A stretch of DNA of 29,196 nt from Sporichthyaceae bacterium (GTDB taxonomy: Bacteria; Actinomycetota; Actinomycetes; JACCUZ01): positions 1 through 29,196 of the forward strand of contig JACCUZ010000121.1 in the NCBI GenBank assembly GCA_013698395.1, read 5' to 3'. The translations under genes and the position numbers were made by a program. This document shows, piece after piece, positions 2,848 to 21,612 of this stretch. Numbering within the stretch: position 1 is the first letter of the stretch; each line of letters opens with the position of its first letter. Under the pieces are notes generated by a model that did not search any database, had not been told where the DNA came from, and was given only the letters and a program-made list of their open reading frames with translations.

Positions 2848-2878
2848 GGTGAAGCCTCCAGGGTGTTGTGATGTGAAC

Positions 2879-3508
2879 TCAGGTGTTGGTGCCGCGCGCG
2901 GAAGCGAACAACGCCTCAAGCAGTCGGAGGTATGCGGTTGCCCCGGGATCGGGATGGCCAATGCTGCGCTCGCCGACCCAGGCCGCCCGGCCACGTCTCG
3001 ACTGCAGCGCCGAAGTCTCCTCCACGGCCGTCCGCGCGTCGGCGACCATCCGGGCCAGCATGTCCTCATCGGGAATGTCCGAAGACTCGGCGATGTCAAC
3101 CGTTGGCGCCATGGCGTCGAGGATCGTCTTGTCACCCAGCTGGGCCTTGCCCCGCGTCATGATGCTGTCGAAGGCAGCCCGAAGCATCGCGGCGGCACCC
3201 TGCCTGTCGAGCTCGCCGGAGTCACCGACAGTCTTAGCACCAGCGAGCAAGGCTCCACCCACGAGCGCCGCCATGGTCGAGGGGTTGCCGCCCGCGAAGG
3301 AAGCACCCGACGTCCGGAGCACCTGACCCGGAGTGGGATCCGCATCCAGCGCGGCAAGCTTGGTGCGCACAGCTGCACACCCCTTGCTGACGGTGATGCC
3401 GAGGTCGCCATCGCCTACGGCCGCATCGAGGTCGCGCAGTTCGTCCCGACTCGCCTCCAGAACGCCCAGCGCCTGGTCGACCAGCTGGCGCAGCTCGGTC
3501 CCGTTCAC
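2879..3508 (-). CDS. dhaL: Dihydroxyacetone kinase L subunit (DAK2 domain)
   Basis: DAAVGDGDLG, GKAQLGDKTILDA, GRAAWVGERSIGHPDPGA; 4-nt GTGA overlap with the dhaK stop. Confidence 0.9.
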   Translation of the reverse strand: MNGTELRQLVDQALGVLEASRDELRDLDAAVGDGDLGITVSKGCAAVRTKLAALDADPTPGQVLRTSGASFAGGNPSTMAALVGGALLAGAKTVGDSGELDRQGAAAMLRAAFDSIMTRGKAQLGDKTILDAMAPTVDIAESSDIPDEDMLARMVADARTAVEETSALQSRRGRAAWVGERSIGHPDPGATAYLRLLEALFASARGTNT

Positions 3509-4503: not shown

Positions 4504-4534
4504 CGGGTCTCCTTCGTCTCGGACGTCTCCTGCC

Positions 4535-6711: not shown

Positions 6712-8204
6712 GCTGCGAGCTCCCTTAGCACAGTCTCTTCGGTGAGCTGTTCACCACTCAGCTCTCCGACAAGACGGCCCTGCCGCACGACCAGGACACG
6801 GTGACAGATGGCTACGAGCTCCGGCACGTCGTCAGAGATGATGACGATTCCCATGCCGTCACGGCTCTTGGCCTGGAGCAGTTCGAGTATCTCGTGCTTG
6901 GAGCCGATGTCGACGCCGACGGTGGGGCTATTGAGGATGAGGACGTGCGGGTCACGGGCAAGCCACTTGCCCAGCGCCACCCGTTGCTGGTTGCCGCCGG
7001 ACAGGCTCCGGACCGGAGCGTCGGCTGAGGACATCTTGATCCGCAGGCCCGTCGCGGTCTCGTCCACCGTCCGCTGCGCAAGCCCAGGGCGCACCAGGTC
7101 GAGCTTGCCGACCAACCGGTCCAGGCTGCCGGCGATGATGTTCCGGCCGATGGACTGGTCGAGGAAGACTCCCTGGGTGAGGCGGTCCCCCGGGACATAG
7201 CCGATGCCTGCCTTGATCGCGTCCTGCGGTGAGCGCAGGCGCACCGGCCGCCCGTCGACACTAACGGATCCGGCGTCCGCCGGAGTCACCCCGAAGAGTG
7301 CCTCGGCTATCTCGCTGCGCCCCGATCCGAGCAGCCCGGTGACGCCGACGACCTCACCTGGTTGCACGCTGAAAGTCACGTCCTTGAACCGACCTTGCAG
7401 GCCGAGTCCCTCGACCTCGAGGAGAGGTTGCTCACTCGAGCGCACGGACTCCGCCGGTCTGGCGTCGGTGACTGCTCGTCCCGTCATCGCCTTGACGATG
7501 GCTGCCCTGTCGAACCGCGTGACGTCACCGGTTACCGCCACGACACCGTTGCGGAGGACGGTGATCCGCTCGGAGATGCGCAGCACCTCCTCGAGCTTGT
7601 GGCTCACGAACACCAGACCGACTCCGCGTTCCTTGAGCGACTCGACAACCCTGAACAGGGCCTCCACCTCCCGCCAGGTGAGGGCTGTCGTCGGCTCGTC
7701 CATGAAGATGATCTGCGCATCACGGGCGAGTGCCCGGCTGATCGCGATGAGCTGCCGGTCGGCGACGGGGAGGTCCTCGACCCGGGCATCAAGGTCGATG
7801 CGAACGCCGATTCGCTCAAGCGCCTCGGCCGCGATACGGCGCACCACGCGCGGCCGCACAACCTTGCGCCGGTCCGCCACCTGAGCAGCGAGCCCGATGT
7901 TCTCGGCCACCGTGAGGTTGGGAAAGAGCGAGAAGTCCTGGAAGATCACCTCGATGCCCAGGCCGATCGCTTGGCGCGGAGTCAGGTGGTGGAACAACTC
8001 GCCGCCGATGCCGATCGTGCCGGCGTCGGGGGCTACGACACCGGCGATGACCTTGATGAGCGTCGACTTGCCAGACCCGTTCTCACCGGCCAAGCAGTGA
8101 ACTTCGCCCGGTCGGACGTCGAAGGAGACGTCAGCGAGCGCGACGACCCCCCCGAAGTGCTTCGAGATGCCGGTCGCCGCGAGCAGAGGCTCAGCTGGAG
8201 CCAT
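6708..8204 (-). CDS. Sugar ABC transporter ATP-binding protein (two-domain RbsA/MglA type)
   Basis: Walker A GENGSGKST; IFMDEPT; LSGGNQQRV; degenerate second Walker B (LILNSPT); AGGAGAGG RBS. Confidence 0.95.
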   Translation of the reverse strand: MAPAEPLLAATGISKHFGGVVALADVSFDVRPGEVHCLAGENGSGKSTLIKVIAGVVAPDAGTIGIGGELFHHLTPRQAIGLGIEVIFQDFSLFPNLTVAENIGLAAQVADRRKVVRPRVVRRIAAEALERIGVRIDLDARVEDLPVADRQLIAISRALARDAQIIFMDEPTTALTWREVEALFRVVESLKERGVGLVFVSHKLEEVLRISERITVLRNGVVAVTGDVTRFDRAAIVKAMTGRAVTDARPAESVRSSEQPLLEVEGLGLQGRFKDVTFSVQPGEVVGVTGLLGSGRSEIAEALFGVTPADAGSVSVDGRPVRLRSPQDAIKAGIGYVPGDRLTQGVFLDQSIGRNIIAGSLDRLVGKLDLVRPGLAQRTVDETATGLRIKMSSADAPVRSLSGGNQQRVALGKWLARDPHVLILNSPTVGVDIGSKHEILELLQAKSRDGMGIVIISDDVPELVAICHRVLVVRQGRLVGELSGEQLTEETVLRELAA

Positions 8205-8225
8205 TCCGGCGCCCCTCTCCTAGGT

Positions 8226-8263
8226 GACCGGGGTGGGCCGCTGCGCGCCCGCCCACCCCGGTC
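8226..8263. terminator. GC-rich stem-loop between the SBP and ATPase genes (mRNA stabiliser or partial terminator)
   Basis: Perfect 13-bp inverted repeat GACCGGGGTGGGC / GCCCACCCCGGTC with a 12-nt loop, directly after the SBP stop; no U-tract. Confidence 0.7.
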
Positions 8264-8287
8264 GGGTCGCCCCGGTGAGACTACGAA

Positions 8288-9322
8288 TCAGAAGGGGTAG
8301 TCCTTGGCGTTGGACTTGTCCACGTCGATCCACGCGTTTCCCGCGTAGGCCGCCGGAGTTCCCTTGATCCGCTTGAGGTCCTCGTAACCCGTCAACTCCA
8401 GATCCAGACCCTCCTTGATCTTCTCGCCCTGTGCCAGCATGACAGCAAGTTTCTGCTGCGCTTTGCCCGCGAGCGCTGGGTCCCAGAAGAAGATCTTGTC
8501 GATCGAGCCATCGTCGAGGAACTTGCCCGCGATCGACGGAATGCTGGTGCCCATCACGCAGGTCTTGTCCTGCAGGCCGGCCTCCTGGATGGCGCGCCCA
8601 ATTCCCGCAACATCTGTTGCGGCGCTGCCCTCGAACCCCTTGATGTCGGGGTACTTGGCGAGCAGCTCCTTGGTCTTCTGGTAGGCCACGTTCGCGTCCT
8701 CCAGCCCTTCGATCGGGTCGCCGATCCGCTCGATGTCCGCGTACTTGGACTCTGCCTGGTTGAACGCTCCTTCGACCCACTCCATGTGGCTCTTCGCGGT
8801 CAGGTGTCCGACGAACGCGACGTACTTGCCCTCACCGCCCATGCACTCGGAGAGGTTGTCCATGATGTGCGCGCCGTAGGCGTCGTTGTCGAACGCCTCG
8901 ATATCGACATCAGTGTTCTTCTGGTTGCTCGCCTCATGGGTGACGACGAAGATGCCTGCGTTGCGGGCCTGCTTCAGCACACCCTCAAGCGCCTCGGGTG
9001 CGTTCGGCACGACGGTGATCGCCGTTGGCTTTTGCGCAATCAGATCCTGGATGATCTTGACCTGCTTCTCGGGGCTGGCGTCGTCAGCTCCCGTCATCGA
9101 GGACTGGGTGCCCTCCTCCTGGCCGAACTCGTCGATGCCGGTCTCCATGCGGTCGAACCACCCGACACCGAGCAGCTTGACGACCGTGACGATCTTCATG
9201 TCCTCGGGCTTGAGGTCCTTGGAGCCCGCTGTGGTGCTGCTACCGCCGTCCCCGGACGAGCATGCGGCCAGCACGAGCGAGAGCACCAGTGCGGCTGCGC
9301 CCGCCATCCGTCCTTTGATCAT
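8288..9322 (-). CDS. Sugar ABC transporter substrate-binding lipoprotein (periplasmic binding protein type 1, LsrB/RhaS-like)
   Basis: Lipobox LAAC; VVKLLGVGWFDRMETG; QVKIIQDLIAQ; WDPALAG; GGGGAG RBS. Confidence 0.9.
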   Translation of the reverse strand: MIKGRMAGAAALVLSLVLAACSSGDGGSSTTAGSKDLKPEDMKIVTVVKLLGVGWFDRMETGIDEFGQEEGTQSSMTGADDASPEKQVKIIQDLIAQKPTAITVVPNAPEALEGVLKQARNAGIFVVTHEASNQKNTDVDIEAFDNDAYGAHIMDNLSECMGGEGKYVAFVGHLTAKSHMEWVEGAFNQAESKYADIERIGDPIEGLEDANVAYQKTKELLAKYPDIKGFEGSAATDVAGIGRAIQEAGLQDKTCVMGTSIPSIAGKFLDDGSIDKIFFWDPALAGKAQQKLAVMLAQGEKIKEGLDLELTGYEDLKRIKGTPAAYAGNAWIDVDKSNAKDYPF

Positions 9323-9442: not shown

Positions 9443-10276
9443 TCATGCTGCCGCCTTCGTCGGCTTCCACAGGCCGGTGGCCGCGGCCGCGGCGACCAGT
9501 CGCTCGACGCGGGCCGGGTCCACCTCGTTCCAGGTGTCACCGGCGCGCTTGAGCGACGTACCCACGACACAACCGTCAGCCACACTCAGCATCTCCTCGA
9601 CGGTGTCCGGTCGCACCCCGGTGTTCGCGATAACCGCTGTCTGAGTACCCAGCGCTTGCTTCGCCTCGCGCAGCTGTGCCACGTCAACACCGGTGCCGGT
9701 GACGGAACCAGAGATGCAGACGGCGTCGGCCAGCGAGCTGAACACAGCAGAGCGCGCGGTGAGCGCGATGCCCCTGGGCGCCAGTGGCGCCGCGAACTCG
9801 GCGGTCACGTTGTAGAAGAGCTTGAGACGGTCCGCCCCGATCTGGCGCCGGTAGGCCAACGTGGACGCCGGGTCGGTGTTCCAGACCCCGAAGTCACCGG
9901 CGTATGCGCCGCTGAACACCTCGCGCACGAAGGACGCCCCCACGGCATGCGCAAGGCCGATCGCCGCTCGCGGATCCCACAAGATGTCGACGCCGAAGGG
10001 GATGGCGAGCTGCCGTTTGACTTCAGTGATCACAGCCGCCATGACGGCGACGACTTCGGGGCCGGTGGTCGTTCGGTACGGCCTGTCGCCCTCGTTGCAG
10101 AACATAACTGCGTCGATGCCGCTGCGCGCGAGGACCGCCACATCCCTGCCCACCCACTCGAGAAGTGCGTCGACCCCCCCGCTGGCGTCGTACAGCGGCT
10201 GACCCGGCATCGGCGGGAAGTGTGCCATCGCGATGATTGCCTTCGGCTTGCCGAAGATCTCATCGATGGCCGTCAT
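9443..10276 (-). CDS. sgcQ: BtpA/SgcQ family phosphate-binding TIM-barrel protein
   Basis: KAIIAMAH, DAVMFCNE, PFGVDILWDP, FVREVFSGAYAGDFGVWNT, ANTGV and DGCVVGTSLK closely match the E. coli SgcQ sequence as I recall it. Confidence 0.85.
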   Translation of the reverse strand: MTAIDEIFGKPKAIIAMAHFPPMPGQPLYDASGGVDALLEWVGRDVAVLARSGIDAVMFCNEGDRPYRTTTGPEVVAVMAAVITEVKRQLAIPFGVDILWDPRAAIGLAHAVGASFVREVFSGAYAGDFGVWNTDPASTLAYRRQIGADRLKLFYNVTAEFAAPLAPRGIALTARSAVFSSLADAVCISGSVTGTGVDVAQLREAKQALGTQTAVIANTGVRPDTVEEMLSVADGCVVGTSLKRAGDTWNEVDPARVERLVAAAAATGLWKPTKAAA

Positions 10277-11409
10277 GCCAGTCCTCCACTCGTGATCTGC
10301 ACGGCGCCGCGCGCCAGGTCGACACTGGGCATCCGCGGGACAAGGCTCGCGAGGAGCTCGACCGACGCCGCGACGTCGGAGAGCTGCGCAGTCTCCACCG
10401 GGGAATGTGTGTAGCGCACCGGGATACCGAGTCCCACGGCGGCAATTCCCTGCGCGGTCGCCATGGTGACGAAGGCGGCGTCCGTGATGACACCGACCAT
10501 CGCGTCGTGCTGCACGGGCATCGATGCAGCGTCCGCAGCTGCCTCTACGGCACGCACCAGACCCGGGTGCGGGATCAACCCGCCGAGCGTGCCCCGGCCG
10601 TGGAAGCTGAGCCGCGACAGCGTTGGGCCACCGCCTAGACGGACCGAACCCTGGCCGACAAGGTCAGGAGTGTCAGTGGCGGGGGCGACGTCGAGGTTGA
10701 CGACCATGTCAGGCTGGAACTTCGCAGCGAGTGTCAGGGTCCCGCGGACATTGAACTCCTCCTGGGTCGTGAACGCGACGACCACGGGACTCGAGGGCGG
10801 TTCAGCGACGAGCCGATCGACGTATGCCAGCAAGGCCGCCACCCCGACGCGATCGTCGAGCGACTTCCCGGCGAACCGTCCGCCACCGAGGTCGTCCCAG
10901 GTGGGCTGATAGGTGACGGGGTCGCCGACCCGGATGCCGGCCGTGTGAGCCTCGTGATCGCTGGCGGCGCCGATGTCGAGATACAGGTCGGTCGCGGGGC
11001 GTGCGACGTACTTTTCCTCCGACGGGGTCAAGTGGTGGCTCTTGACACCGACGACCGCAGGGACGTCCGCGCGGGAGGTGTGGACGAGAAGTCGCAGGCC
11101 GGGCAGCACCCGCTCTGGCATTCCGCCGAGGCGGTGCACGCGCAACATCCCGTCCGAATCGACCCCCCGGACCACCAGCCCCAGCTCATCGAGGTGGGCG
11201 GTGACCATCACCGCGGCACCATCGGAGGGTCCGAATCCCACCGCGATCTGTCCGAGCCGGTCCACGAACGGCTCCAGGCCGCCGCAGCGCAGATGGTCGA
11301 CCACGGCGGCAGTCAGGCGGTCCTCGTTCCCCGCAGGCGCCGCTACGCCGGACAGTCGGCGGCACAACCCCAGAAGATCGGCTGTCGCATCGCCAAGCTG
11401 GGAATGCAC
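10273..11409 (-). CDS. sgcX: M42-family dinuclear metallohydrolase of the SgcX subfamily
   Basis: All metal/catalytic motifs present: AHLDE, LDDRVG, QEEFNVRG, LDV, RYTHSP. SgcX-type signatures DTPDL, HGRGTLGGLI and GVITD. Confidence 0.82.
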   Translation of the reverse strand: MHSQLGDATADLLGLCRRLSGVAAPAGNEDRLTAAVVDHLRCGGLEPFVDRLGQIAVGFGPSDGAAVMVTAHLDELGLVVRGVDSDGMLRVHRLGGMPERVLPGLRLLVHTSRADVPAVVGVKSHHLTPSEEKYVARPATDLYLDIGAASDHEAHTAGIRVGDPVTYQPTWDDLGGGRFAGKSLDDRVGVAALLAYVDRLVAEPPSSPVVVAFTTQEEFNVRGTLTLAAKFQPDMVVNLDVAPATDTPDLVGQGSVRLGGGPTLSRLSFHGRGTLGGLIPHPGLVRAVEAAADAASMPVQHDAMVGVITDAAFVTMATAQGIAAVGLGIPVRYTHSPVETAQLSDVAASVELLASLVPRMPSVDLARGAVQITSGGLA

Positions 11410-11577: not shown

Positions 11578-12396
11578 ATGCGCACTGGGCAACGGCGGCG
11601 CGAAATTCTTCGCCGGCTGCTGTTCACCGGCTACGTGGAGGCAAAGGCTCTCGCCGACAGCCTCGACGTCGACTCGTCCACGATCCGGCGCGACCTGGAC
11701 GCCCTCGCCCGGGACGGTCAGCTGCAGCGCACGCACGGCGGCGCCCGTCTGCTCGACGGAGCGGTCGACGTCCCCTATGCGCTCAAGCAGCAGCAGCGGA
11801 CCGAGGCGAAGAAGGCGATCGCTGCCGCCGCGGGCGAGGCTGTCGTCGACGGAGACAGCATCCTCATCGACAGCGGCTCTACCACGTACCATCTCGCAGT
11901 TGCACTCCGGGGCCGCCGTGACCTGACCGTCGTCACCAACGACCTCCGCATCGCCCTGCTTGTTGCGGATTACCCCGCGATCCGTCTCCTGGTGACTGGC
12001 GGCGAACTGCTGAACTCGACGTACACGCTGGTCGGCGACCGGGCGGTCGCCTTCGTCTCGGATCTCCGGGTCGACTGGACATTCCTCGGCGCCGACGCCA
12101 TCGCCCTCGACACCGGCATCACCAACACGAATGCGGCGGAGATCCCGCTGAAGCGCTCGATGATCGCGGCCGGCCGCACGCCCGTGGTGCTGGCGGACAG
12201 CACCAAGCTCGGTCGGCACGCCCTGGTTCGGGTCGCACAGCTGGAGGAGGTCGACCAGATCATCACCGACGACGAGCTGAACGACGAGGACGCGGCGGCG
12301 TACGGCTCCCGATTGCGTCGCGTCGTGTCGGCACATCTGGAAGACCAGCGAGCCGCACCGGACAACACTGATGCCCGAGTGCGGGAACGGGTCTGA
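11578..12396 (+). CDS. DeoR/GlpR-family transcriptional regulator
   Basis: HTH VDSSTIRRDLDAL, RTHGGA, DSGSTT, TVVTNDL, FLGADAI, LADSTKLG. Confidence 0.95.
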   Translation: MRTGQRRREILRRLLFTGYVEAKALADSLDVDSSTIRRDLDALARDGQLQRTHGGARLLDGAVDVPYALKQQQRTEAKKAIAAAAGEAVVDGDSILIDSGSTTYHLAVALRGRRDLTVVTNDLRIALLVADYPAIRLLVTGGELLNSTYTLVGDRAVAFVSDLRVDWTFLGADAIALDTGITNTNAAEIPLKRSMIAAGRTPVVLADSTKLGRHALVRVAQLEEVDQIITDDELNDEDAAAYGSRLRRVVSAHLEDQRAAPDNTDARVRERV

Positions 12397-13898
12397 TGTT
12401 CCTGGGAGTGGACATCGGCACCGCGAGCAGCAAGGCCGTGGCCGTCGCCGCCGATGGGACCCTCGTCGCATCCGCGATTCGTCCACATCTGACCACCACG
12501 CCGCATCCGGGATGGTTCGAGCACGACGCCGAGGATGTCTGGTGGTCCGACTTCCGAGAACTGACCCACGAGGTGCTCTCGACGGTTCCCGGTCACGAGG
12601 TCACGTGCGTGGGGGTCAGCGGCATCGGTCCCAGCACGCTGCTCACCGACGTCGGCGGCCAGCCGCTGCGGGCCGCCATCCTCTATGGGATCGACACCCG
12701 TGCTGAGCGCGAAATCGAGGAGCTGACCGAGACTCTCGGCGCGGGTCGGTTGCTCGAGGTCAATGGGAACCGGCTCACCTCGCAGGCGGTGGGACCAAAG
12801 TTCCTGTGGGTCGCCCGGCATGAACCCGAGGTGTGGGAGCGGGCGCGGCGGTGGTACGGCGCGTCCAGCTGGCTCGTGCAGCGCCTGACCGGCGAGTACG
12901 TGCTCGACCACTACTCGGCGAGCACGTCCGATCCGCTCTACGATCTCGGCAGGAGCGACTGGTGGGCGGACGGGTGGGCGGCGTCCGCCCCTGGCATCGA
13001 GCGCCCCCGCCTCGCCTGGCCCGGTGACGTCGTGGGTGAGGTGCATACGGCCGCGGCCGAAGCGTGCGGCATCGCCGCCGGCACACCCGTCGTCGCCGGG
13101 ACCATCGACGCGCTCGCCGAGGCGCACAGCGTCGGGTCCGACGGGATCGGTGACACGATGGTCATGTACGGCTCGACTCTGTTCCTCATCCAGACAGTGG
13201 CACGGCCAGCAGTCCACGGCGGCTTGTGGGCAGCCAGCGGGCGAACCCCCAACACCAACTCCGTCGCCGCCGGCATGGCCACCTCCGGCCTCGTCACAAC
13301 GTGGTTCGCAGAGGTCACCGGTCAATCCCTCGGCGATCTCACCGCACAGGCGGCAGAGGTGCCGGCCGGCAGCGATGGACTGGTCCTGCTGCCGTACTTC
13401 GCAGGTGAGCGCACGCCTCTGTTCGACCCGAGAGCCCGTGGATGCTGGCTGGGTCTCACGCTCGGGCACACCAGGGCACACCTTTACCGGTCGGCACTCG
13501 AGGGCGTGGCCTACGGCGTGCGCCACAATCTCGATGCGATGGCCGAGGCCGGCGCGCCCCCACGACGGCTCGTTGCGGTCGGTGGAGGCACGCGGGGGAA
13601 CCTCTGGACGCACATCGTCAGCGATGTGACGCAGTTGCCACAGGATCTCCCCACCACCACGATCGGCGCATCGTACGGCGACGCACGCCTAGCCGCCGAG
13701 GCGGTCGGCGTCGATACGCGGGCGTGGAACCCCGTCGCGCAACGCATCGAACCGGACCCGTCCCCTGCCGGTCTGTACGACGAGCTGTACGCCGTATTTC
13801 GTCACACGTATCCGGCGATTCGCGACGAGATGCACCGGCTCGCGGCGGCAGTCACGATGCGAGGGTCAGCACCGCGCAAGCGGTCTCCTCATCCGTGA
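12396..13898 (+). CDS. FGGY-family carbohydrate kinase (xylulokinase-like subgroup)
   Basis: LGVDIGTASSK, PGWFEHD, AILYGIDTRA, GTIDA, LPYFAGERTP, RSALEGVAYG, VGGG; TGATG coupling to the DeoR gene. Confidence 0.92.
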   Translation: MFLGVDIGTASSKAVAVAADGTLVASAIRPHLTTTPHPGWFEHDAEDVWWSDFRELTHEVLSTVPGHEVTCVGVSGIGPSTLLTDVGGQPLRAAILYGIDTRAEREIEELTETLGAGRLLEVNGNRLTSQAVGPKFLWVARHEPEVWERARRWYGASSWLVQRLTGEYVLDHYSASTSDPLYDLGRSDWWADGWAASAPGIERPRLAWPGDVVGEVHTAAAEACGIAAGTPVVAGTIDALAEAHSVGSDGIGDTMVMYGSTLFLIQTVARPAVHGGLWAASGRTPNTNSVAAGMATSGLVTTWFAEVTGQSLGDLTAQAAEVPAGSDGLVLLPYFAGERTPLFDPRARGCWLGLTLGHTRAHLYRSALEGVAYGVRHNLDAMAEAGAPPRRLVAVGGGTRGNLWTHIVSDVTQLPQDLPTTTIGASYGDARLAAEAVGVDTRAWNPVAQRIEPDPSPAGLYDELYAVFRHTYPAIRDEMHRLAAAVTMRGSAPRKRSPHP

Positions 13899-14838
13899 CC
13901 AGCACGTTCACCAAGCGACAACGCAGGGCCCCAAGGACGGCCTCCGCCTTGCGCCGACCGGCCGCAACCCCGATCACTCGGGGGATCCGGCTTAGCGGTG
14001 CAGCGGCGATGGCGATGACCCGTCGCTGGAACTCCGACTCGACAAGCCGGCCTTCCGCGGTGAACAGATGTCCGCACACGTCCCCGACGGCCCCGGTACG
14101 CCGGATGTCGGCGAGCCCCCTTCGGCTCAGATACCCGGCCCGCAGCAGAGACGACACCTCGGGTATCAGTGCGCCGATGCCCACAAGCGCCACGTCGGCT
14201 TGGCCGGCCGCCGCCAGCGTGTCCCGGACACCTCGCTGCCGCAACAGTGCGCTCGCCACCTCCTCGCTGTCGACAACGAGCGGCGCGTTCAGGTAGCGGC
14301 ATCGGCCGCCCAGCAGGTCGGCCAGCCGGCGGGCTAGCTCGGTGCCATCGACCTGTGGGTCGCGACTGCACGCTCCACCGAGCATCTGGACCACTTCAAC
14401 GGTTCGGGGGATCCGAGGTTCCAGGGCATCGGTGACAGCCCGCAAGCTCGTGCCCCACGAGATGGCGAGCACATCATCATCTGTCAGGACTCCGTCGACG
14501 TACCGCGCAGCCAAGGCGCCCACGCGACCCAGTAGCGCCTCCGCGGGACCGTGAGCCGCGAGAACGAGCGCATCGCGCAGCCCGAACGTCGAGACGAGCG
14601 CCCGCTGAACGTCCTCCGCGAGCGCCAACGGGCGACGGATCCGGATTTCGACGATCCCAGTGTCGAGTGCCTCGCTAAGCATCCGGGAGACGGTCGACCG
14701 GGAGACTTTCATCCGCCTGGCGATCTCCTGCTGGTCGAGCCTGGACTGGTAGTACAACGCCGCGGCATCGGCGACCAGGTCCTCGCGGCGGCCCTCCGCG
14801 CTGCCCACGGACCGCGGGGCGGCCCGGGCCTCTGCCAC
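13852..14838 (-). CDS. SorC/LsrR/CggR-family sugar-binding transcriptional regulator
   Basis: AALYYQSRLDQQEIARRMKVSRSTVSRML HTH; ISWGTSL; VALVGIG; GAVGDVCGH; IGVAAGRRKAEA; LVTDE. GTG start 2 nt after the lipoyl gene stop; the ORF-track start at 15027 overlaps the lipoyl gene. Confidence 0.92.
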   Translation of the reverse strand: MAEARAAPRSVGSAEGRREDLVADAAALYYQSRLDQQEIARRMKVSRSTVSRMLSEALDTGIVEIRIRRPLALAEDVQRALVSTFGLRDALVLAAHGPAEALLGRVGALAARYVDGVLTDDDVLAISWGTSLRAVTDALEPRIPRTVEVVQMLGGACSRDPQVDGTELARRLADLLGGRCRYLNAPLVVDSEEVASALLRQRGVRDTLAAAGQADVALVGIGALIPEVSSLLRAGYLSRRGLADIRRTGAVGDVCGHLFTAEGRLVESEFQRRVIAIAAAPLSRIPRVIGVAAGRRKAEAVLGALRCRLVNVLVTDEETACAVLTLAS

Positions 14839-14840
14839 TG

Positions 14841-15089
14841 CTAGGCCTGCCCGCTCTCGTCGATGTAGGCGATGGTTTCGCCCTCGACGGCCGATTGACC
14901 TTCCGCGCAGACGGTCCTGGTAAGGGTGCCGGTGTACAGCGACTCGACAGACATGTCGACCTTGTCCGTCGCTACGTCGAACAGCGGCTCGCCCTTCACG
15001 ACGCGGTCGCCGGGCGCCTTGTGCCAAAGGGCCAGCACAAGGTCGCCCGCCGCGTCCCCCATCGGGGGCATCACCACGGCAACTTCCAT
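14841..15089 (-). CDS. Stand-alone lipoyl (biotin/lipoyl attachment) domain protein, 82 aa
   Basis: VVMPPMG...WHKAPGDRVVKGEPLFDVATDKVDMSVES...G...V..G..IAYI. Lipoyl-Lys in TDKV; GAGGAAGG RBS; stops with no peripheral-subunit-binding or acyltransferase domain. Confidence 0.9.
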   Translation of the reverse strand: MEVAVVMPPMGDAAGDLVLALWHKAPGDRVVKGEPLFDVATDKVDMSVESLYTGTLTRTVCAEGQSAVEGETIAYIDESGQA

Positions 15090-15098
15090 TGGCCTTCC

Positions 15099-16097
15099 TC
15101 AGCTGCTCAGCAGGTCACGCACGGCCAGGACCACGTCTTCGACGTCCGGGATCAGTGTTCGCTCCAGCTCGGTGTGAGCCGGCAGAACGACGTCTGGGGC
15201 AGTGAGTCGCCGGACGGGAGCAGCCAACTCGCCGAAGAGCTGCTCGCCGACGGTGGCGGCGATCTCGGCACCGAGGCCGCCCGTGCGGCAGGCCTCGTGC
15301 AGCACCAGCACGCGTCGGGTCGAGCCGGCGGAGTCGAGCACTGTCGTCATGTCCAGTGGCGCGAGGCAGCGCATGTCCACGACCTCGACGGACACGCCGT
15401 CCGCAGACAGCCGCTCTGCGGCTTCGAGCGCAATGTGAACGTGGTTGGACCAGGTAACGATGGTCACGTCCGTGCCCGTCCGCTTGACGTCCGCGACACC
15501 GAGCGGCACCACATGGTCGACTTCTGCTGCCGCTCCTTTGCGCGGGTAGAGGCCCTTGTGCTCGATGAACAGGACCGGATCGTTGTCCCGGATAGCGGCC
15601 TTCAGGAGTCCCTTGGCATCGGCAGGCGTGCTGGGAGCCACCACCTTGAGGCCCGGGACATGGGCAAACCATCCCTCAAGGCTCTGGGAATGCTGCGAGC
15701 CCGCGCCCCGACCGGTGCCCTGTTGGACTCGCACGACGAGAGGTGCATTGAACTGCCCGCCGAACATGTAATGGACCTTCGCCGCCTGGTTCACCAGGTT
15801 GTCCATGGCCAGAGTGACGAAGTCCATGTACATGATCTCCGCCACTGGTCGGGCACCGACCATGGCGGCACCGAGGGCAGCTCCAACGATGAGCGCTTCC
15901 GACATCGGCGTGTCGATGACCCGGCGCTCGCCGAACCTCTCCAGCAGGCCTCGGGACACGGCGTAGGCACCACCGTAACGGCCAACATCCTCGCCGAGAA
16001 GGATCACGCTCTCGTCCGCCTCCATCTCCTCGTGCAACGCTTCCCGTAGCGCGTCACGAAAGGACACCGTCCGGGCGGAGCTGAGGGTGCCAGTCAC
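15099..16097 (-). CDS. TPP-dependent dehydrogenase E1 beta subunit (AcoB/PdhB-like)
   Basis: LGEDVG, RVIDTPMSE, AEIMYMDF, QHSQSLEGWF, PGLKVV, DPVLFIEHK, EVVDMRCLAPLD. Confidence 0.92.
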   Translation of the reverse strand: MTGTLSSARTVSFRDALREALHEEMEADESVILLGEDVGRYGGAYAVSRGLLERFGERRVIDTPMSEALIVGAALGAAMVGARPVAEIMYMDFVTLAMDNLVNQAAKVHYMFGGQFNAPLVVRVQQGTGRGAGSQHSQSLEGWFAHVPGLKVVAPSTPADAKGLLKAAIRDNDPVLFIEHKGLYPRKGAAAEVDHVVPLGVADVKRTGTDVTIVTWSNHVHIALEAAERLSADGVSVEVVDMRCLAPLDMTTVLDSAGSTRRVLVLHEACRTGGLGAEIAATVGEQLFGELAAPVRRLTAPDVVLPAHTELERTLIPDVEDVVLAVRDLLSS

Positions 16098-17098
16098 TGG
16101 TCGCCTCCCAACGGAGTGGCGTAGATGTCGGAGAAGACCTCATCCACGGAGGCGATCGGTCCTGCCTCCGCGAACTCCATGGCGGCGACGATCTCGGCCT
16201 CGATCTCTCGCTCCAGTGACTCGGTGACATCGCCCGCGACGCCGGCGGCGGAAAGCCGAATTTTCTCCAGCAGGAGCGGATCCCGCGCATGCCAGCGCTG
16301 CTCCTCCTCGCGGTCGCGGTAGGTACTCGGGTCGCCCCGGGAGTGGCCCAGGAAACGGTATGTCTCGACACCGAGCAACGTGGGCCCTTCTCCTCGGCGA
16401 GCCCGTGACACTGCCTGGTCGGCCGCCTCGCGAACCGCAAGCACGTCCTGGCCGTCGACGTCGACACCGATGATGCCGTAGCCCTCGGCCTTGCGTGCGA
16501 CACTCGGCTGAGCCGTGGCTCGCTCCCATGGCAACGACATGGCGTAGTGATTGTTCTCAATGACGAAGACCACCGGCAATCCGCGAACGGCGGCGAAGTT
16601 CACCGCCTCGTGGAAGATGCCTTCCGTTGTGGCGCCATCCCCGAAGAAGGACACCGCCACCCTGGACTGCCCCGTCAGTGAGCTCCAGAGGGCCGCGCCG
16701 GTCGCGATCGGGATATGCCCACCGACGATCGCATTCGAACCCAGGTGACCGATGGATGCATCGACCAAGTGCATCGAGCTGCCACGACCGCGGCAGGCGC
16801 CGGTCTCGCGACCCATGAGCTCCGCCATGAGGGCACTCATGGCACCTCCTCGGGCCAGGAAATGTCCGTGCCCCCGGTGAGTACTGGTGACGTAGTCCTC
16901 CGGACGGAGCACATCGCATACCCCAACCGCGACCGCCTCCTGGCCGATGCTGACGTGGCACATCGTGCTGGACAAGCGGTTCTGAAGGAGCAGTTCCAAG
17001 ATCCGCTCCTCAGCTCGGCGGATCCTCACCATCCCGCGGTAGAGCCGCACCAGCGTTGAAACGTCGACGATTCTGGTGTCCTGATCAAAGACGGACAT
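16094..17098 (-). CDS. TPP-dependent dehydrogenase E1 alpha subunit (AcoA/PdhA-like)
   Basis: SIGQEAVAVG, STHRGHGH, GRGSSMH, TPP motif GDGATTEG...ENN, TYRFLGH. Confidence 0.92.
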   Translation of the reverse strand: MSVFDQDTRIVDVSTLVRLYRGMVRIRRAEERILELLLQNRLSSTMCHVSIGQEAVAVGVCDVLRPEDYVTSTHRGHGHFLARGGAMSALMAELMGRETGACRGRGSSMHLVDASIGHLGSNAIVGGHIPIATGAALWSSLTGQSRVAVSFFGDGATTEGIFHEAVNFAAVRGLPVVFVIENNHYAMSLPWERATAQPSVARKAEGYGIIGVDVDGQDVLAVREAADQAVSRARRGEGPTLLGVETYRFLGHSRGDPSTYRDREEEQRWHARDPLLLEKIRLSAAGVAGDVTESLEREIEAEIVAAMEFAEAGPIASVDEVFSDIYATPLGGDQ

Positions 17099-18635
17099 GC
17101 TCGACCACCTCGTGCATCAATTGCCGCATCGCATCGAACGACGCGACGTACCTGTCGAAGTAGAACTGGTAGGCGGCGTGGTTCACGGCGTCCGGATGGA
17201 TCTCGCGCTCGACGTGAACCATCGCCCGAGCCGCCGTCGCCACGTCTGGGTAGATGTCGCCGGCGACTGAGGCGAGGATGCCGGCACCTAGGCTGACGGC
17301 CTCCGGTACCGCCGTGATCGTGATGGGAAGGTTCGACACGTCGGCGTGGATCTGCATCCACAGATCGCTCTTGATCGCGCCTCCGCAGGCGACGACGTCG
17401 TCGATCTGATGCCCGCAGGAGGCGAACGTGCGGAAGATGTTTTCGGTCCCGAAGCAGACGGCTTCGATCAGCGCGCGATAGATGTGTGCCGGCGTATGCC
17501 CGAGGCTGAGCCCCCAGATCATGCCGCGGGCGTCGGCATCGACGTAGGGCGTCCGATTTCCCTGCCAGAAGTCCAGTGCGAGGACACCGTCGCACCCTGG
17601 CGGGATGCGCTTCGCCTGCTCCTGCAGCACGCGGAAGACCCGGTCGGGCGGGATCGCACCGGTCGAGAAGTGTTCACCGCTGCAGAGGTTCCGGAACCAG
17701 CTGATCACGGAGCCCGTGGAGACCTGGCCCCCCTCGATCGTGTAGTGCCCGGGAACGACCGCGTCTGTGTATGCGCCGAACATGCCAGGCGCGTAGCTCG
17801 GCGTCTCCGTCTGCGCCAGGTGCAGGTGCGAGGAGCCGGTGATCAGTGCGGCCCGCCCCGGGGAGATGACGTTGAGACCCACCATCCCGACGAAGGCATC
17901 GGCCCCGCCTTCGGCGACCGGCGTCCCAGGCAGCAGGCCGAGCTCGTCAGCCGCCTGGGAGGTCAGCGTTCCCAGCGGGCCGCCCATGTCGACCACCCGG
18001 GCCGGCAGCTTCTCGACGAGGTCAGGCAGTCCCACTGCGGAGAACAACGTGGCCGGCCAGCCACCGGCCGCACGGTCGTAGTAGCCCCGGATGGAAGCGG
18101 TGTTGATGCTCACCGCCCACTCCCCGGTCAGCCGGTAGCCCAGCCAGTCGGTGAATTCCAGGATGTGGGCAGCGCGCTCGTAGGTACCGGGCTCGTGGTC
18201 GGCCAGCCACAGCACCTTGCTCAGCAGCCACTCGGCCGAGATCTTGGTGTACCCGCTGTACTTCAGTGCGGGATCACCCGTTTGCGCAATGCGACCCGCC
18301 TCTTGGGAGGCACGGACGTCCATCCAGATAAGCGCGGGCCGCAGTGGTTCCCCTGCGGCATCGGTGGTCACCACCGTGCAACTGGTGCATGCAACCGCGA
18401 TGCCACGGATGTCGGCCACGTCGACCCGGCTCAGGCTCACCGCCTCACGAGTCGCCGCCACAGCAGCCGCCCACCAGTCCTGCGGATCCTGCTCGGCCCA
18501 ACCCGGACGCGCATGAACCGTCCGGTAAGGCGCCCGTGCGAAAGCGACCTGCCGACCAGCGGTGTCGAAAACGGCCGCGCGCATGGCCTCAGTGCCGCCG
18601 TCGAGGCCGAGGACATACCGCCCTCTGTCCTGCAT
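17085..18635 (-). CDS. FGGY-family carbohydrate kinase (ribulokinase/pentulose kinase-like)
   Basis: YVLGLDGGTE, PGWAEQDP, IWMDVRA, GGADA, EGGQVSTG, LDFWQGNRTPY, IYRALIEAVCFG, CGG. Start taken as ATG 18635 (MQDRGR). Confidence 0.92.
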   Translation of the reverse strand: MQDRGRYVLGLDGGTEAMRAAVFDTAGRQVAFARAPYRTVHARPGWAEQDPQDWWAAAVAATREAVSLSRVDVADIRGIAVACTSCTVVTTDAAGEPLRPALIWMDVRASQEAGRIAQTGDPALKYSGYTKISAEWLLSKVLWLADHEPGTYERAAHILEFTDWLGYRLTGEWAVSINTASIRGYYDRAAGGWPATLFSAVGLPDLVEKLPARVVDMGGPLGTLTSQAADELGLLPGTPVAEGGADAFVGMVGLNVISPGRAALITGSSHLHLAQTETPSYAPGMFGAYTDAVVPGHYTIEGGQVSTGSVISWFRNLCSGEHFSTGAIPPDRVFRVLQEQAKRIPPGCDGVLALDFWQGNRTPYVDADARGMIWGLSLGHTPAHIYRALIEAVCFGTENIFRTFASCGHQIDDVVACGGAIKSDLWMQIHADVSNLPITITAVPEAVSLGAGILASVAGDIYPDVATAARAMVHVEREIHPDAVNHAAYQFYFDRYVASFDAMRQLMHEVVEHVRL

Positions 18636-18660: not shown

Positions 18661-18699
18661 CTTGCACACTTGTGCAAGGCACCGGGAATCTGTGCACAG
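18661..18699. promoter_or_regulatory. Paired TGCACA/TGTGCA dyads, candidate operator for the SorC-family regulator
   Basis: CTTGCACA-CT-TGTGCAAG (18661-18678) and CTGTGCACAG (18690-18699); both perfect dyads, between the promoter and the kinase start. Confidence 0.65.
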
Positions 18700-18757: not shown

Positions 18758-20305
18758 TCAGACGGGGAACTCGACGCCCTGGGCGAGAGGCAGCTCCCCG
18801 CTGTAGTTGACGGTGTTCGTGGCCCGGCGCATGTAGGCCTTCCACGAGTCCGAGCCGGACTCGCGACCGCCGCCGGTCTCCTTCTGGCCGCCGAACGCTC
18901 CACCGATCTCCGCACCCGACGTGCCGATGTTCACGTTGACGATGCCGCAGTCCGAGCCGTCCGCCGCCAGGAAGCGCTCGGCCTCGGCCTGGTCGCCGGT
19001 GAAGATGCTCGAGGCGAGCCCCTGCGGCACGGCGTTGTGCAGGCTGATCGCCTCGCGTAGGTCGCGGTAGGTCAGGACGTGCAGGAGAGGCGCGAACGTC
19101 TCCCGGCGTACGACGTCGGCCTGCCGGGGCAGCCGCACGACGGCGGGGGTGACGTAGAACGCGTCCGGGCCCTCCTCGGCGAGCCGCCGCTCCCCGCCCA
19201 CGAGGACCTCGCCCCCGCTGGAGCGCACGTCCTCGAGAGCGGTGACCAACGAGTCGTACGCGGCCCGGTTGACCAGCGGGCCGACCAGCGTCGAGGGGTC
19301 GAAGGGGTTGCCGACCGGGAGCCGGCGGTATGCCTCGACCACGCGCCCGACGAGGTCGTCCACCACGTCCTCGTGGGCGATGAGCCGGCGCATCGTCGTG
19401 CACCGCTGCCCCGCGGTCCCTGCCGCCCCGAAGACGATCCCGCGGGTGGCGAGGCCGAGGTTCGCCGTCGGTGTCACCACAGCCCCGTTGTTGCCGCCGA
19501 GCTCGAGCAGGGTCTGGCCCAGCCGACCGGCGACGCGCTGAGCGACGTCCCGCCCCATCCGCACCGACCCGGTCGCGCTCACCAAGGCGACATCGGGGTG
19601 CTCGACCAGCGGGCGGGCCGTCGTCGCGTCCCCGACCAGCACCTGGTTCAGGTGTGCGGGTGCGCCCGTCTCGGCCGCCGCCCGGTCGAGCAGCGCGCTG
19701 CAGGCCAGAGCCGTGAGAGGCGTGAGCTCCGACGGCTTCCATACGACGGGGTCACCGCAGACGAGGGCGATCGCAGCGTTCCACGACCAGACGGCCACGG
19801 GGAAGTTGAAAGCGGTCACGACCCCGACGACCCCGAGGGGGTGCCAGGTCTCCATCAGGCGGTGGCCCGGACGCTCAGAAGGCATGGTCCGCCCGTAGAG
19901 CTGCCGGGAGAGGCCGACGGCGAAGTCGCAGACGTCGACCATCTCCTGCACCTCGCCGCGCGCCTCCGAGCGGATCTTGCCGACCTCGATCGTCACCAGG
20001 TCCGCCAGCGCGTCCTGATGTTCACCCAGCAGCTCACCGAGCCGCTTCACCAGCGCTCCTCGAGCAGGGGCCGGTGTTGTGCGCCAGGCCAGGAACGCCG
20101 CGTGCGCGCGTTCCACCGCGCGTTCGACGTCTCCGTCGGCGGCCCAGGAGACCGGGAGGAGGTCGTCGCCGGTGATCGGGGATCGCGACCACTGGTCGCC
20201 AGAGAGGAGGGACTCGTCGACACCGCATGCGTGCAGCGATCGTCGGGCCAGGTCGCTCAGCTCCGCGGTCTTGGGAAGGGCAGGCCGGCTGATGGCAGCA
20301 GTCAC
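18758..20305 (-). CDS. pcd: L-piperideine-6-carboxylate / alpha-aminoadipate semialdehyde dehydrogenase (ALDH7 family)
   Basis: GEVQEMVDVCDFAVGLSRQLYG, MPSERPGHR, AFNFPVAVWSWN, WKPS, LELGGNN, GTAGQRCT, ETFAP, GTSGAEIGGAFGG. GTG start overlaps the hglS stop. Confidence 0.9.
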   Translation of the reverse strand: MTAAISRPALPKTAELSDLARRSLHACGVDESLLSGDQWSRSPITGDDLLPVSWAADGDVERAVERAHAAFLAWRTTPAPARGALVKRLGELLGEHQDALADLVTIEVGKIRSEARGEVQEMVDVCDFAVGLSRQLYGRTMPSERPGHRLMETWHPLGVVGVVTAFNFPVAVWSWNAAIALVCGDPVVWKPSELTPLTALACSALLDRAAAETGAPAHLNQVLVGDATTARPLVEHPDVALVSATGSVRMGRDVAQRVAGRLGQTLLELGGNNGAVVTPTANLGLATRGIVFGAAGTAGQRCTTMRRLIAHEDVVDDLVGRVVEAYRRLPVGNPFDPSTLVGPLVNRAAYDSLVTALEDVRSSGGEVLVGGERRLAEEGPDAFYVTPAVVRLPRQADVVRRETFAPLLHVLTYRDLREAISLHNAVPQGLASSIFTGDQAEAERFLAADGSDCGIVNVNIGTSGAEIGGAFGGQKETGGGRESGSDSWKAYMRRATNTVNYSGELPLAQGVEFPV

Positions 20306-21612
20306 GCCGAGAGCGTACGCAGCGCGACGTCCCACGACGCCTGTCGTTGGGCGGCGTAGAGCTCGAACAGGTCATGCACCGGCCGCTGCAGCACGCCGGC
20401 CAGCCATCCCGCATCACGCTGCGACCCGGGTTGCGACCGGTCGCTGTCGTCGTCACGCCCGAGGTTGGAGCGGAAGATCCCGGCGGCCGAGCGAGGCAGG
20501 AAGTCCTCGTACACGACCGGATGCAGGATCACCCAGCCGCCGTCGACGAGGGCGGCGAGGTCGCCGAGCGGCGGCCTCTGCCGCGGTCGCTGCGGGCGCG
20601 CGGTGACCGTGTAGAAGGCCAGGTCGTTCACCGCCAGGTCCCGCTCGGTGCGGGGAAGGTCGGCCACGCCCGTCGCGTCGAACCGTTGCCGCCCGGCCGA
20701 GGTCAGCGCGACTCCCCGCGCCTCGACCTCGCCGAAGCGGACCCGGAGGGCGCCCCGCTCGACCCTGCCGTCCGGACCGCGGAACCACCGCGGCTCGGCC
20801 AGCGCCCGGAACGAGGTCTGGCGCAGCAGGACCGCCGGACCATCGACCCGCGGCGGTCCCTGGATCTCGTCGATCATCTCCACGCCGGCGGCCTGCATCC
20901 GCTCGTACAGCAGGTCGATGTCGAGGACCCGGGGGGTCAGATGGTTGATGTGGGTGGTGGTCACACCGGCGATGTCGGCCGCGACGCCGGAGACCTGCTC
21001 GAGTCGCTCATACCACGCACGGTCGATCGGCTCGGCCGACAACGAGAACGCGTCGACGGCCAGGTCGAGAAACCGGTCGGCCTCGGCTTCCGGGAGAGCC
21101 CCGTCGGCCTCGGCTCGCTCGGCCAAGGAGAGCAGCTCTGGCGAGAAGAGCTGCCGCCGGCCGAGGAAGCGCTCCACATCGTGCTGCAGGTCGGCAGGGA
21201 AGAACCGGCGGTCGTCGGTCGTGAGCACCGAGACGAATACCCGGAACGGGTTCGCCGCCAGCTCGGTTGCATCGAGCGGGCGAAACGCCGTGGACACCAC
21301 CGGCACCGAGGCGGCGCCGGCATCACGCAGGTCGTAGAAGCCGACCGGGTGCATGCCCATCGCGGCGAAGAGCTGCCCGACCTCGCGCAGCTCCGCGACC
21401 GTGCCCACCCGGATCGCGCCGTGCCGCTCGGCGGTGACCCGCTCCAGGCTGCCGAGCCGCTCGGCGTCCGGATCACCGGCAACCACGTCGTAGTTCACCT
21501 GCGCCGCGACGTCGACGAGGGTGCGGTAGGCGGGCACCTCACCGCCGTACATCGTGGAGAGCCGTGCCGCGAACGCCGCCCGCAGCTGCGTCGAGCTCAG
21601 TTCCTGCGGCAT
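20302..21612 (-). CDS. hglS: 2-oxoadipate dioxygenase/decarboxylase (DUF1338, D-2-hydroxyglutarate synthase)
   Basis: MYGGEVPAY, AERHGAIRVG, VGFYDL, STAFRP, NPFRVF, HINHLTPR, QTSFRAL, RFGEVEARG, YEDFLPRSAAGIF. Confidence 0.88.
   Translation of the reverse strand: MPQELSSTQLRAAFAARLSTMYGGEVPAYRTLVDVAAQVNYDVVAGDPDAERLGSLERVTAERHGAIRVGTVAELREVGQLFAAMGMHPVGFYDLRDAGAASVPVVSTAFRPLDATELAANPFRVFVSVLTTDDRRFFPADLQHDVERFLGRRQLFSPELLSLAERAEADGALPEAEADRFLDLAVDAFSLSAEPIDRAWYERLEQVSGVAADIAGVTTTHINHLTPRVLDIDLLYERMQAAGVEMIDEIQGPPRVDGPAVLLRQTSFRALAEPRWFRGPDGRVERGALRVRFGEVEARGVALTSAGRQRFDATGVADLPRTERDLAVNDLAFYTVTARPQRPRQRPPLGDLAALVDGGWVILHPVVYEDFLPRSAAGIFRSNLGRDDDSDRSQPGSQRDAGWLAGVLQRPVHDLFELYAAQRQASWDVALRTLSA

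Follow-up and report, generated by a model that had tools for sequence, protein, structure and literature searches.

An FGGY-kinase-linked E1 operon with a free-standing lipoyl carrier, conserved across uncultured Actinomycetota and Chloroflexota, may cleave the phosphorylated sugar made by its own kinase

The DNA analysed here, referred to throughout as the window, is a stretch of 29,196 nucleotides (contig JACCUZ010000121.1, positions 1 to 29,196; GenBank assembly GCA_013698395.1) from a Sporichthyaceae bacterium of the phylum Actinomycetota, with a G+C content of about 68%. On its minus strand lie, in this order, genes for an FGGY-family sugar kinase, the alpha and beta subunits of a thiamine diphosphate (ThDP)-dependent E1 enzyme (E1a and E1b), a free-standing lipoyl carrier protein (Lip) and a SorC-type regulator. 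This arrangement is that of a conserved family found in two phyla and is not a product of chance. We favour, with moderate confidence, the reading that the operon would supply the first half of a ThDP/lipoyl system of the acetoin dehydrogenase type, adapted to what its own kinase makes, all of its chemistry being inferred. The features of the operon are as follows.

17085-18635, minus strand: FGGY1, an FGGY-family pentulose-type sugar kinase of 516 aa (Pfam FGGY_N and FGGY_C).
16094-17098, minus strand: E1 alpha (E1a), ThDP-dependent, 334 aa (PF00676, E1_dh, 1.1e-77).
15099-16097, minus strand: E1 beta (E1b), 332 aa (PF02779, Transket_pyr, and PF02780, Transketolase_C).
14841-15089, minus strand: Lip, a free-standing lipoyl carrier protein of 82 aa (PF00364, Biotin_lipoyl, 1.7e-11).
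13852-14838, minus strand: a SorC/DeoR(Bsu)/LsrR-type sugar-phosphate-sensing regulator of 328 aa (helix-turn-helix domain and PF04198, Sugar-bind, 1e-66).
18662-18677, no strand: the perfect palindrome TTGCACAcTTGTGCAA, a likely SorC operator, in the 122-nt region upstream of the kinase.

These five genes are one operon with its own operator, as their domains, their tight spacing and a separate promoter region with a recurring palindrome indicate. The kinase and E1a genes overlap by 14 nt and the E1a and E1b genes by 4 nt; a gap of 9 nt, which holds a GGAAGG ribosome-binding site before the Lip ATG, separates E1b from Lip, and the GTG start of the regulator lies 2 nt past the Lip TAG stop. 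A preliminary description made from the letters alone had proposed this gene order and had described an operon lacking an E2 core and an E3; Pfam domains and junction sequences confirm the order, and profile searches detect neither a PF00198 E2 catalytic domain nor an E3 among the open reading frames (ORFs) scanned across the window. The kinase start at 18635 given in the same description also stands, since a longer ORF from 18713 would cross the 122-nt intergenic region that holds the palindrome. Two genes further upstream (18758-21612) pass the NCBIfam equivalog cut-offs for L-piperidine-6-carboxylate dehydrogenase and for mycobacterial-type HglS (2-oxoadipate dioxygenase/decarboxylase). They belong to lysine catabolism and are therefore a unit separate from the sugar operon, with the operator region lying between the two.

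Among 41 related genomes, one, from another family of the same class, carries a close E1a orthologue (77% identity), the rest reaching at most 49%; the single close-relative locus has the kinase, E1a, E1b, an 81-aa Lip, the SorC regulator and a convergent second kinase, at 70-77% protein identity. The unpublished genome G030 entered a tally only and supports none of the claims made here. A wider survey combined public protein matches and their contigs, a scan of one genome per species and BLAST annotation of 80 loci, and it recovered about 20 distinct loci with an E1a at least 58% identical to that of the window. In the E1a tree these loci form one clade, here called T1, with 100% support in the Shimodaira-Hasegawa-like approximate likelihood ratio test (SH-aLRT) and on a long branch from a sister set, T2 (43-54% identity). 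The T1 loci come from metagenome-assembled genomes (MAGs) of Actinomycetota, Limnocylindria, Ardenticatenia, Anaerolineae and Roseilinea, thus from the phyla Actinomycetota and Chloroflexota. An FGGY kinase gene sits directly 5' of E1a in all of those with upstream sequence, and a free lipoyl gene of 80-88 aa follows E1b in 19 of the 20, the contig of the twentieth ending before that point. The genome search for an FGGY, E1a, E1b and lipoyl-only architecture that the preliminary description had proposed as a check thus recovers a family of kinase-linked loci with a free lipoyl gene, and the window shares every one of these features: the kinase 5' of E1a, the free Lip after E1b and an E1a within the clade. 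In the actinobacterial/Limnocylindria subclade, a second FGGY kinase is also kept beside the operon.

The sister set gives a view of the background from which T1 may have arisen. T2 loci carry an E1, often as a fused alpha-beta protein, together with a normal E2 of 400-530 aa, and many have a zinc-dependent alcohol dehydrogenase (Zn-ADH) and a SorC regulator. They resemble acetoin/butanediol clusters in this respect, which argues for an acyloin-type ancestry of the T1 E1. No E3-like ORF is found in any T1 locus; as an E3 is linked in only three T2 loci, we rejected the absence of E3 as a special feature of T1, given that a linked E3 is rare in the sister clade too. A stretch near-identical to that of the window occurs in soil, terrestrial and sediment metagenomes from at least eight studies, and no RNA run was found to hold it. 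Our literature search found no description of a system made of an FGGY kinase, an E1 and a free lipoyl protein.

The origin of the carrier can be traced within the clade. In seven T1 loci, from Ardenticatenia and a single subclade of Anaerolineae, Lip is directly followed by a further gene (239-258 aa) that encodes nothing but a 2-oxoacid_dh catalytic domain; its DHRVIDG motif is intact, and a subunit-binding domain is absent. Because this core gene follows Lip in those loci and the sister clade has a full E2, we read the carrier as historically the lipoyl half of an E2 split into two genes, with the core half missing in the window. On the E1a tree, no fewer than three changes are needed to account for where the core gene is present or absent; it is missing from the T1 lines that branch earliest and from all eight members of the subclade to which the window belongs. 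A T2 locus from a Thermotogota MAG (L073:9926-13750) has E1a and E1b, a lipoyl gene of 87 aa and then a catalytic-domain gene of 215 aa, plus a SorC regulator, and E2 splitting is therefore not confined to the kinase-linked clade.

Judging by its conservation, Lip is a maintained free carrier and not a decaying one. Its lipoyl-lysine motif is ATDKVD, and in an alignment of 22 orthologues the lysine is invariant within (T/S)(D/E)K; a clade-specific N-terminal motif, VVMPPLGD, is also kept. Pairwise ratios of nonsynonymous to synonymous substitution (dN/dS) range from 0.26 to 0.55 within the core-less subclade. Among public gene calls, more than 15 clusters contain relatives of 80-91 aa that are 59-96% identical, and some of these clusters are seen on dozens of contigs. 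It is the invariant lysine, the dN/dS values and these separately called genes across the clade that argue for maintenance, and they bear out the earlier claim that the lipoyl gene is not broken. The preliminary description had also named the circumstance that would speak against it, namely homologous loci with a full E2 and a lipoyl gene that is a truncation remnant. The first half of this is what we see, with a full E2 in the sister clade and a separate core in seven of about 20 loci, but the second half is not, as Lip is under selection.

Where the acyl group would go in core-less genomes can be considered from the rest of the gene content. The genome of the window (80.6% complete) has PF00198 only in frames of 489 aa and 1133 aa, both on other contigs; it also has an E3-like gene adjacent to that of the 489-aa E2, more lipoyl and E3-like genes and one LplA/LipB-family gene. 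Four further core-less genomes (G034, G041, G042 and G043, one of them 97% complete) show no stand-alone E2 core, PF00198 being found only in frames of at least 426 aa, which are ordinary E2s or OdhA-type fusions. Discharge of acyl-Lip in trans is thus possible, and we treat it as an assumption.

A second, different free-lipoyl cluster is present in G001, a genome of the same genus as the window (L016:4721-11344). It comprises an E1a 44% identical to that of the window, an E1b and a 79-aa lipoyl gene, and its neighbours are genes for an HbpS-like protein and an NCS1-family permease, with a divergent short-chain dehydrogenase/reductase (SDR) and a lipoyl-synthase-like radical SAM gene.

Judged by its motifs, the E1 appears complete for catalysis: E1a keeps both the ThDP motif GDG...NN and the histidine of GHS, and the DTPMSE glutamate and HSQ histidine are present in E1b. 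The conserved E1b histidine is the residue placed against the bound substrate in the G. stearothermophilus E1p structure, and we take the same residue to serve the lipoyl step as well. The substrate-carboxylate contacts described in the paper on that structure yielded no usable discriminator between 2-oxoacid and acyloin substrates. Several features are specific to the clade, namely S44, a one-residue insertion at C47, R83, H118, H128, W138 and W191 in E1a, some of these substitutions lying near the ThDP-binding GIVG stretch and the conserved histidine in sequence, and R14, H109 and Q115 in E1b. These residues are candidate specificity determinants. The Joint Genome Institute (JGI) names several E1a orthologues acetoin:DCPIP oxidoreductase alpha. 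A search among plasmid proteins for a named AcoA or PdhA to serve as a reference yielded generic names only.

The genes around the operon bear on what the kinase might phosphorylate. Those between the operon and the left end of the window are as follows.

12396-13898, plus strand: the second FGGY kinase (XylB-like), convergent with the operon.
11578-12396, plus strand: a DeoR/GlpR-type regulator, 5' of the second kinase.
9443-11409, minus strand: M42 (SgcX-like) and BtpA/SgcQ-like genes, at the head of the transporter operon.
4535-9322, minus strand: a CUT2 sugar ATP-binding cassette (ABC) importer, with a binding protein (8288-9322), an ATPase (6708-8204) and two permeases (5665-6711 and 4535-5668).
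2879-4617, minus strand: DhaK (3505-4617) and DhaL (2879-3508), the two subunits of a kinase of the dihydroxyacetone kinase type, which close the transporter operon.
1840-3135, minus strand: a Zn-dependent alcohol/polyol dehydrogenase (coordinates of the listed ORF; its true start is probably just past the DhaL stop at 2879).

The binding protein of the importer matches PDB entry 5BRA, titled a putative binding protein with substrate ribose, at 263 bits, and entry 9I1M, AauA of enterohaemorrhagic E. coli (EHEC) with alpha-D-ribulose, at 186.6 bits. In a HMMER alignment, five of the six AauA contacts to D-ribulose are identical in the window protein (K37, W43, E118, H167 and E196), and the sixth, S223, is an alanine. 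AauA binds alpha-D-ribulose more than 200-fold better than L-arabinose (PMC12307932).

The kinase scores 337 bits against the NCBIfam model for ribulokinase, 268 against that for pentulose kinase and 236 against LsrK, all under the cut-offs, and its best match in E. coli is LsrK at 29.5% identity. Members of the same close-knit kinase orthogroup, at 53-59% identity and mixed among the E1-linked kinases on the tree, are also found away from an E1. At locus L108, such a kinase gene is directly 5' of a ribulose-phosphate 3-epimerase gene. At L109:1-17727, DhaK, DhaL, the importer (40-53%) and the orthogroup kinase are followed by a 383-aa RuBisCO-like protein in the place of E1a, E1b and Lip; the importer, DhaK/DhaL and kinase of this locus are 40-60% identical to their window orthologues, with MtnA-like (IF-2B) and MtnK-like (APH) genes upstream and SorC, Zn-ADH and ribulose-phosphate 3-epimerase genes downstream. 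A third locus, L107:4769-14638, belongs to the cultured Pseudarthrobacter sp. NPDC058329 and has the kinase (59%) and SorC regulator (45%) with no E1; downstream of them come genes for a DeoC-family protein, which shares 33% identity with LsrF of E. coli, and for a Zn-ADH. Being in culture, this strain may offer a way to the identity of the sugar.

Taken together, the binding protein and the kinase contexts suggest a pentulose resembling ribulose, with the phosphate placed on the terminal carbon. The phosphorylated keto-sugar substrate put forward in the preliminary description would fit the overlap of the kinase and E1a genes, the SorC-type regulator, the AauA-like binding protein and the orthogroup kinase beside a ribulose-phosphate 3-epimerase. 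The linked oxidoreductases vary (a Zn-ADH in the window, aldo-keto reductases at several loci, two SDRs at the loci with an E2 core) and would fit the conversion of an aldose or polyol to a ketose; the D-apiose cluster of the E. coli ST131 type has this same layout around a split transketolase. The M42 and BtpA/SgcQ-like pair at the head of the transporter operon is conserved in L019, L020, L026 and L027. The same SgcX/SgcQ pair occurs in the orphan sgc operon of E. coli, alongside a ribulose-phosphate-epimerase paralogue, and that operon may act on a related pentulose.

As to which pentulose, a normal full transketolase is present in all five genomes checked, that of the window included (418-506 bits). 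Plain D-ribulose 5-phosphate as the kinase product would therefore make the system redundant, which argues mildly against an intermediate of the pentose phosphate pathway. By the same observation, we rejected the idea of a bypass for a missing transketolase. An analogue inaccessible to the pentose phosphate pathway, with a 1-deoxy-pentulose 5-phosphate and phospho-4,5-dihydroxy-2,3-pentanedione as candidates, seems at least as likely; we lean towards it because it would give an acetyl unit, and acetyl-CoA needs no further enzymes, whereas none is encoded for glycolyl-CoA. Apulose as substrate, with a kinase orthologous to AplK, was considered and rejected, the kinase being 23.6% identical to AplK, though the cluster architecture is parallel.

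The regulator scores 217 bits against the DeoR and 164 against the LsrR model of NCBIfam, both under cut-off, and is 32% identical to E. coli LsrR. The 122-nt intergenic stretch 5' of the kinase contains a TTGACT hexamer and the palindrome listed above, which occurs once in the window. We searched for the motif TGCACA-N2-TGTGCA with up to two mismatches, for which the background rate is 0.86 per 20 kb, and found it in the intergenic stretch 5' of the operon, both in the window and in 12 related SorC-containing loci; it precedes the binding-protein gene where the importer leads the operon. Four loci that have no SorC gene (L024, L031, L036 and L038) show no motif within two mismatches upstream of the operon start, and L037 has a weak match only. 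In the cultured Pseudarthrobacter, it lies between the SDR and kinase genes. The palindrome is thus a likely, predicted SorC operator. In L019 and L027, the motif is also found upstream of the M42 gene that heads the importer operon (L019:15647; L027:15601), which ties the importer operon to the same regulator.

In the scheme that we propose, the AauA-like ABC importer would bring in either a pentulose resembling ribulose or another sugar or a polyol from which the linked dehydrogenase would make one. The FGGY kinase would phosphorylate the terminal hydroxyl, and the phosphate ester would also be the likely inducer recognised by SorC. On the E1, ThDP would add to the C2 carbonyl and the C2-C3 bond would be broken as in acetoin dehydrogenase, releasing a triose phosphate, while the C2 unit would pass to the free Lip and reduce its dithiolane. 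This unit would be acetyl if the substrate were a 1-deoxy or 2,3-dioxo pentulose phosphate, and glycolyl if it were an ordinary ketose phosphate. In relatives, the separately encoded E2 catalytic domain would then move the acyl group to coenzyme A (CoA); the link to acyl-CoA formation is drawn because that domain, with its intact DHRVIDG, follows Lip in seven loci. In the genome of the window, the transfer to CoA would take place in trans, most simply by the 489-aa housekeeping E2, and the carrier would be reoxidised by a housekeeping E3.

Several observations weigh against this scheme. The kinase, the regulator and the binding protein all fall under every curated equivalog cut-off. The locus encodes no enzyme to discharge the acyl-lipoyl group, and four related genomes have no stand-alone core that could do so. 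If the kinase product were plain D-ribulose 5-phosphate, the transketolase pathway would make the system redundant. The recurrent DhaK/DhaL is unexplained by the scheme. A complex prediction for E1a and E1b with Lip as partner scored 0.00, which speaks neither for nor against binding. Finally, all T1 members come from uncultured genomes.

The DhaK/DhaL kinase is the starting point of an alternative that is redox-neutral and resembles a phosphoketolase. Its genes directly follow Lip in L037 and L038 and close the importer operon in the window, L036, G041 and G042, with L024 showing DhaL only, at the edge of the locus; the linked DhaK orthologues are a conserved group at 57-77% identity across Actinomycetota and Chloroflexota. 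DhaK/DhaL would phosphorylate the C1 hydroxymethyl next to the ketone and the FGGY kinase C5, so that the E1 would cleave a 1-phospho or 1,5-bisphospho pentulose; the ThDP-bound C2 unit would then lose phosphate to become acetyl-ThDP, and the acetyl group would pass to dihydrolipoyl Lip and on to CoA, with no turnover of E3. The locus L109 fits such a route, since the same transporter, DhaK/DhaL and kinase there precede a RuBisCO-like protein, and substrates of the RuBisCO-like family carry a 1-phospho-2-keto group. An E3 is unlinked in all T1 loci, as this route would lead one to expect, but its absence says little, since linkage of an E3 is also rare in the sister clade. Against the route, DhaK/DhaL is missing near the E1 in the loci that have an E2 catalytic domain, we know of no precedent for an E1_dh enzyme in a reaction of this kind, and the whole scheme is chemical inference. 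We consider this route unlikely. If true, it would be a lipoyl-dependent, E3-free analogue of phosphoketolase, parallel to a RuBisCO-like-protein route that uses the same importer, DhaK/DhaL and kinase. A strict either/or relation between DhaK/DhaL and the E2 catalytic domain was looked at separately and is not upheld, as G043 has its DhaK on another contig and G045, of the E2-catalytic-domain type, has a 57% identical DhaK elsewhere, the groups being few and related.

Two further explanations would leave Lip with little to do. The E1 could act as a transketolase or carboligase that moves the C2 unit to an aldehyde acceptor, as AptA/AptB do in the D-apiose pathway, with Lip dispensable or regulatory. 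The D-apiose cluster of E. coli SE15 has the same architecture and a split transketolase where E1a, E1b and Lip sit here, yet Lip, its lysine invariant, is present in 19 of 20 loci and evolves under purifying selection, the E1b histidine that faces the substrate in the G. stearothermophilus E1p is kept, and an E2 catalytic domain follows Lip in seven loci, so that we regard a transferase role as decidedly improbable. One of the two SDRs of that E. coli cluster (L106:10042-20989) shares 42% identity with the first SDR in the Anaerolineae loci with E1, Lip and E2 catalytic domain, the kinases being unrelated beyond family level.

The other explanation is that the enzyme is an ordinary E1 for acetoin, pyruvate or branched-chain 2-oxoacids that uses a housekeeping E2, with the kinase linkage coincidental and Lip the leftover of a truncated E2. 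This would sit well with E1b, which passes the PRK09212 pyruvate dehydrogenase (PDH) E1-beta subfamily model (384 bits against a cut-off of 321), with the structures closest to E1a, which are PDH and 2-oxoacid E1s, and with the full E2 of the sister clade. E1a, however, stays under the cut-off of the PDH E1 alpha equivalog TIGR03182 (336.1 against 393.85 bits) and carries clade-specific changes such as the C47 insertion, H118, H128, W138 and W191. Coincidence is also hard to square with a kinase-E1 linkage that runs through a well-supported clade of two phyla, with overlapping genes and a shared operator, or a leftover with a Lip under selection, and an ordinary E1 therefore seems to us a poor candidate. 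Least probable, in our judgement, is that the substrate is a phosphorylated 2-oxo sugar acid oxidatively decarboxylated as in the classical 2-oxoacid dehydrogenases: E1_dh enzymes do mostly act on 2-oxoacids and some FGGY kinases phosphorylate acid sugars, but no locus has a dehydratase, lactonase or sugar-acid gene, the binding protein resembles binders of neutral pentuloses and pentoses, and the product would be an unusual polyhydroxy-acyl-CoA for which no downstream enzymes are encoded.

We return to the acetoin-dehydrogenase-type cleavage of a kinase product as the favoured reading. ThDP/lipoyl multienzyme systems are the textbook machines for 2-oxoacids and acetoin. If the reading is true, the operon would represent a new way to break a sugar phosphate into an acyl-CoA and a triose phosphate, and it would mean that a lipoyl domain can diffuse as a carrier from an E1 to a core whose gene lies elsewhere. 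In other bacteria, the partner of this uptake and kinase module is an epimerase, a RuBisCO-like protein or an LsrF-like enzyme, so the identity of the sugar would annotate several orphan pathways at once, possibly including E. coli sgc.

Known systems resemble this one in different ways. Uptake of D-ribulose by Aau of EHEC and Rbl of Citrobacter rodentium is likewise followed by an FGGY pentulose kinase, but in those systems further metabolism runs through the pentose phosphate pathway instead of an E1/lipoyl module. The Lsr system for autoinducer-2 (LsrACDB, LsrK, LsrR, LsrF and LsrG) draws on the same importer, kinase and regulator families, and its end products are a C3 phosphate and acetyl-CoA. 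The window proteins nonetheless miss the Lsr equivalog cut-offs widely (LsrK 236 against 528 bits, LsrR 164 against 486, LsrB 86 against 384), no LsrF or LsrG homologue is found in the window, and cleavage would be ThDP/lipoyl-dependent where that of Lsr is thiolytic. The D-apiose cluster (AplK and AptA/AptB; Pectobacterium and E. coli ST131) shares the logic of the operon, with two SDRs, an FGGY kinase, a CUT2 importer, a SorC-type regulator and a ThDP enzyme of two subunits. The enzyme of that cluster, however, is a split transketolase which cuts C2-C3 of the kinase product and hands the two carbons over to an aldose without a lipoyl group or an oxidation step, and E1a and E1b of the window have only remote similarity to AptA/AptB.

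Closest by chemistry are QncN/QncL/QncM and NapB/NapD of the tetrahydroisoquinoline antibiotics and SclQ1-4 of scleric acid. QncN/QncL and NapB/NapD depend on ThDP to take two carbons off a ketose phosphate and load them onto a lipoyl group as a glycolyl thioester (PMC6335953, PMC7570522). The descriptions of the Qnc and Nap systems set them apart from the operon studied here, in that they are transketolase-type, have the lipoyl domain fused to an acyltransferase and deliver to an acyl carrier protein (ACP) within nonribosomal peptide synthetase (NRPS) clusters, whereas the window has an E1_dh-type enzyme, a free carrier and an importer and kinase context, with no ACP or NRPS among the ORFs scanned. 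The parallel with QncN/QncL and NapB/NapD drawn in the preliminary description therefore holds as an analogy of chemistry and not as homology, E1a matching E1_dh at 261.5 bits and Transketolase_N at 21.2 bits, under the cut-off of 22.

By homology, the closest system is acetoin dehydrogenase (AcoA/AcoB/AcoC/AcoL), with which the window shares a heteromeric E1_dh-type alpha/beta enzyme with an intact ThDP motif and catalytic residues. The E1 of acetoin dehydrogenase cleaves the C-C bond of an acyloin instead of decarboxylating, and then reductively acylates a lipoyl group. Unlike the cluster with AcoC, the operon in the window has a free 82-aa Lip and no lipoyl-acyltransferase E2, and unlike that with AcoL it has no E3 in the cluster, although this last is a weak criterion. 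It differs further in that its E1 genes overlap a sugar-kinase gene and are under SorC-type control, the E1 carries conserved substitutions of its own, and the substrate is presumably phosphorylated.

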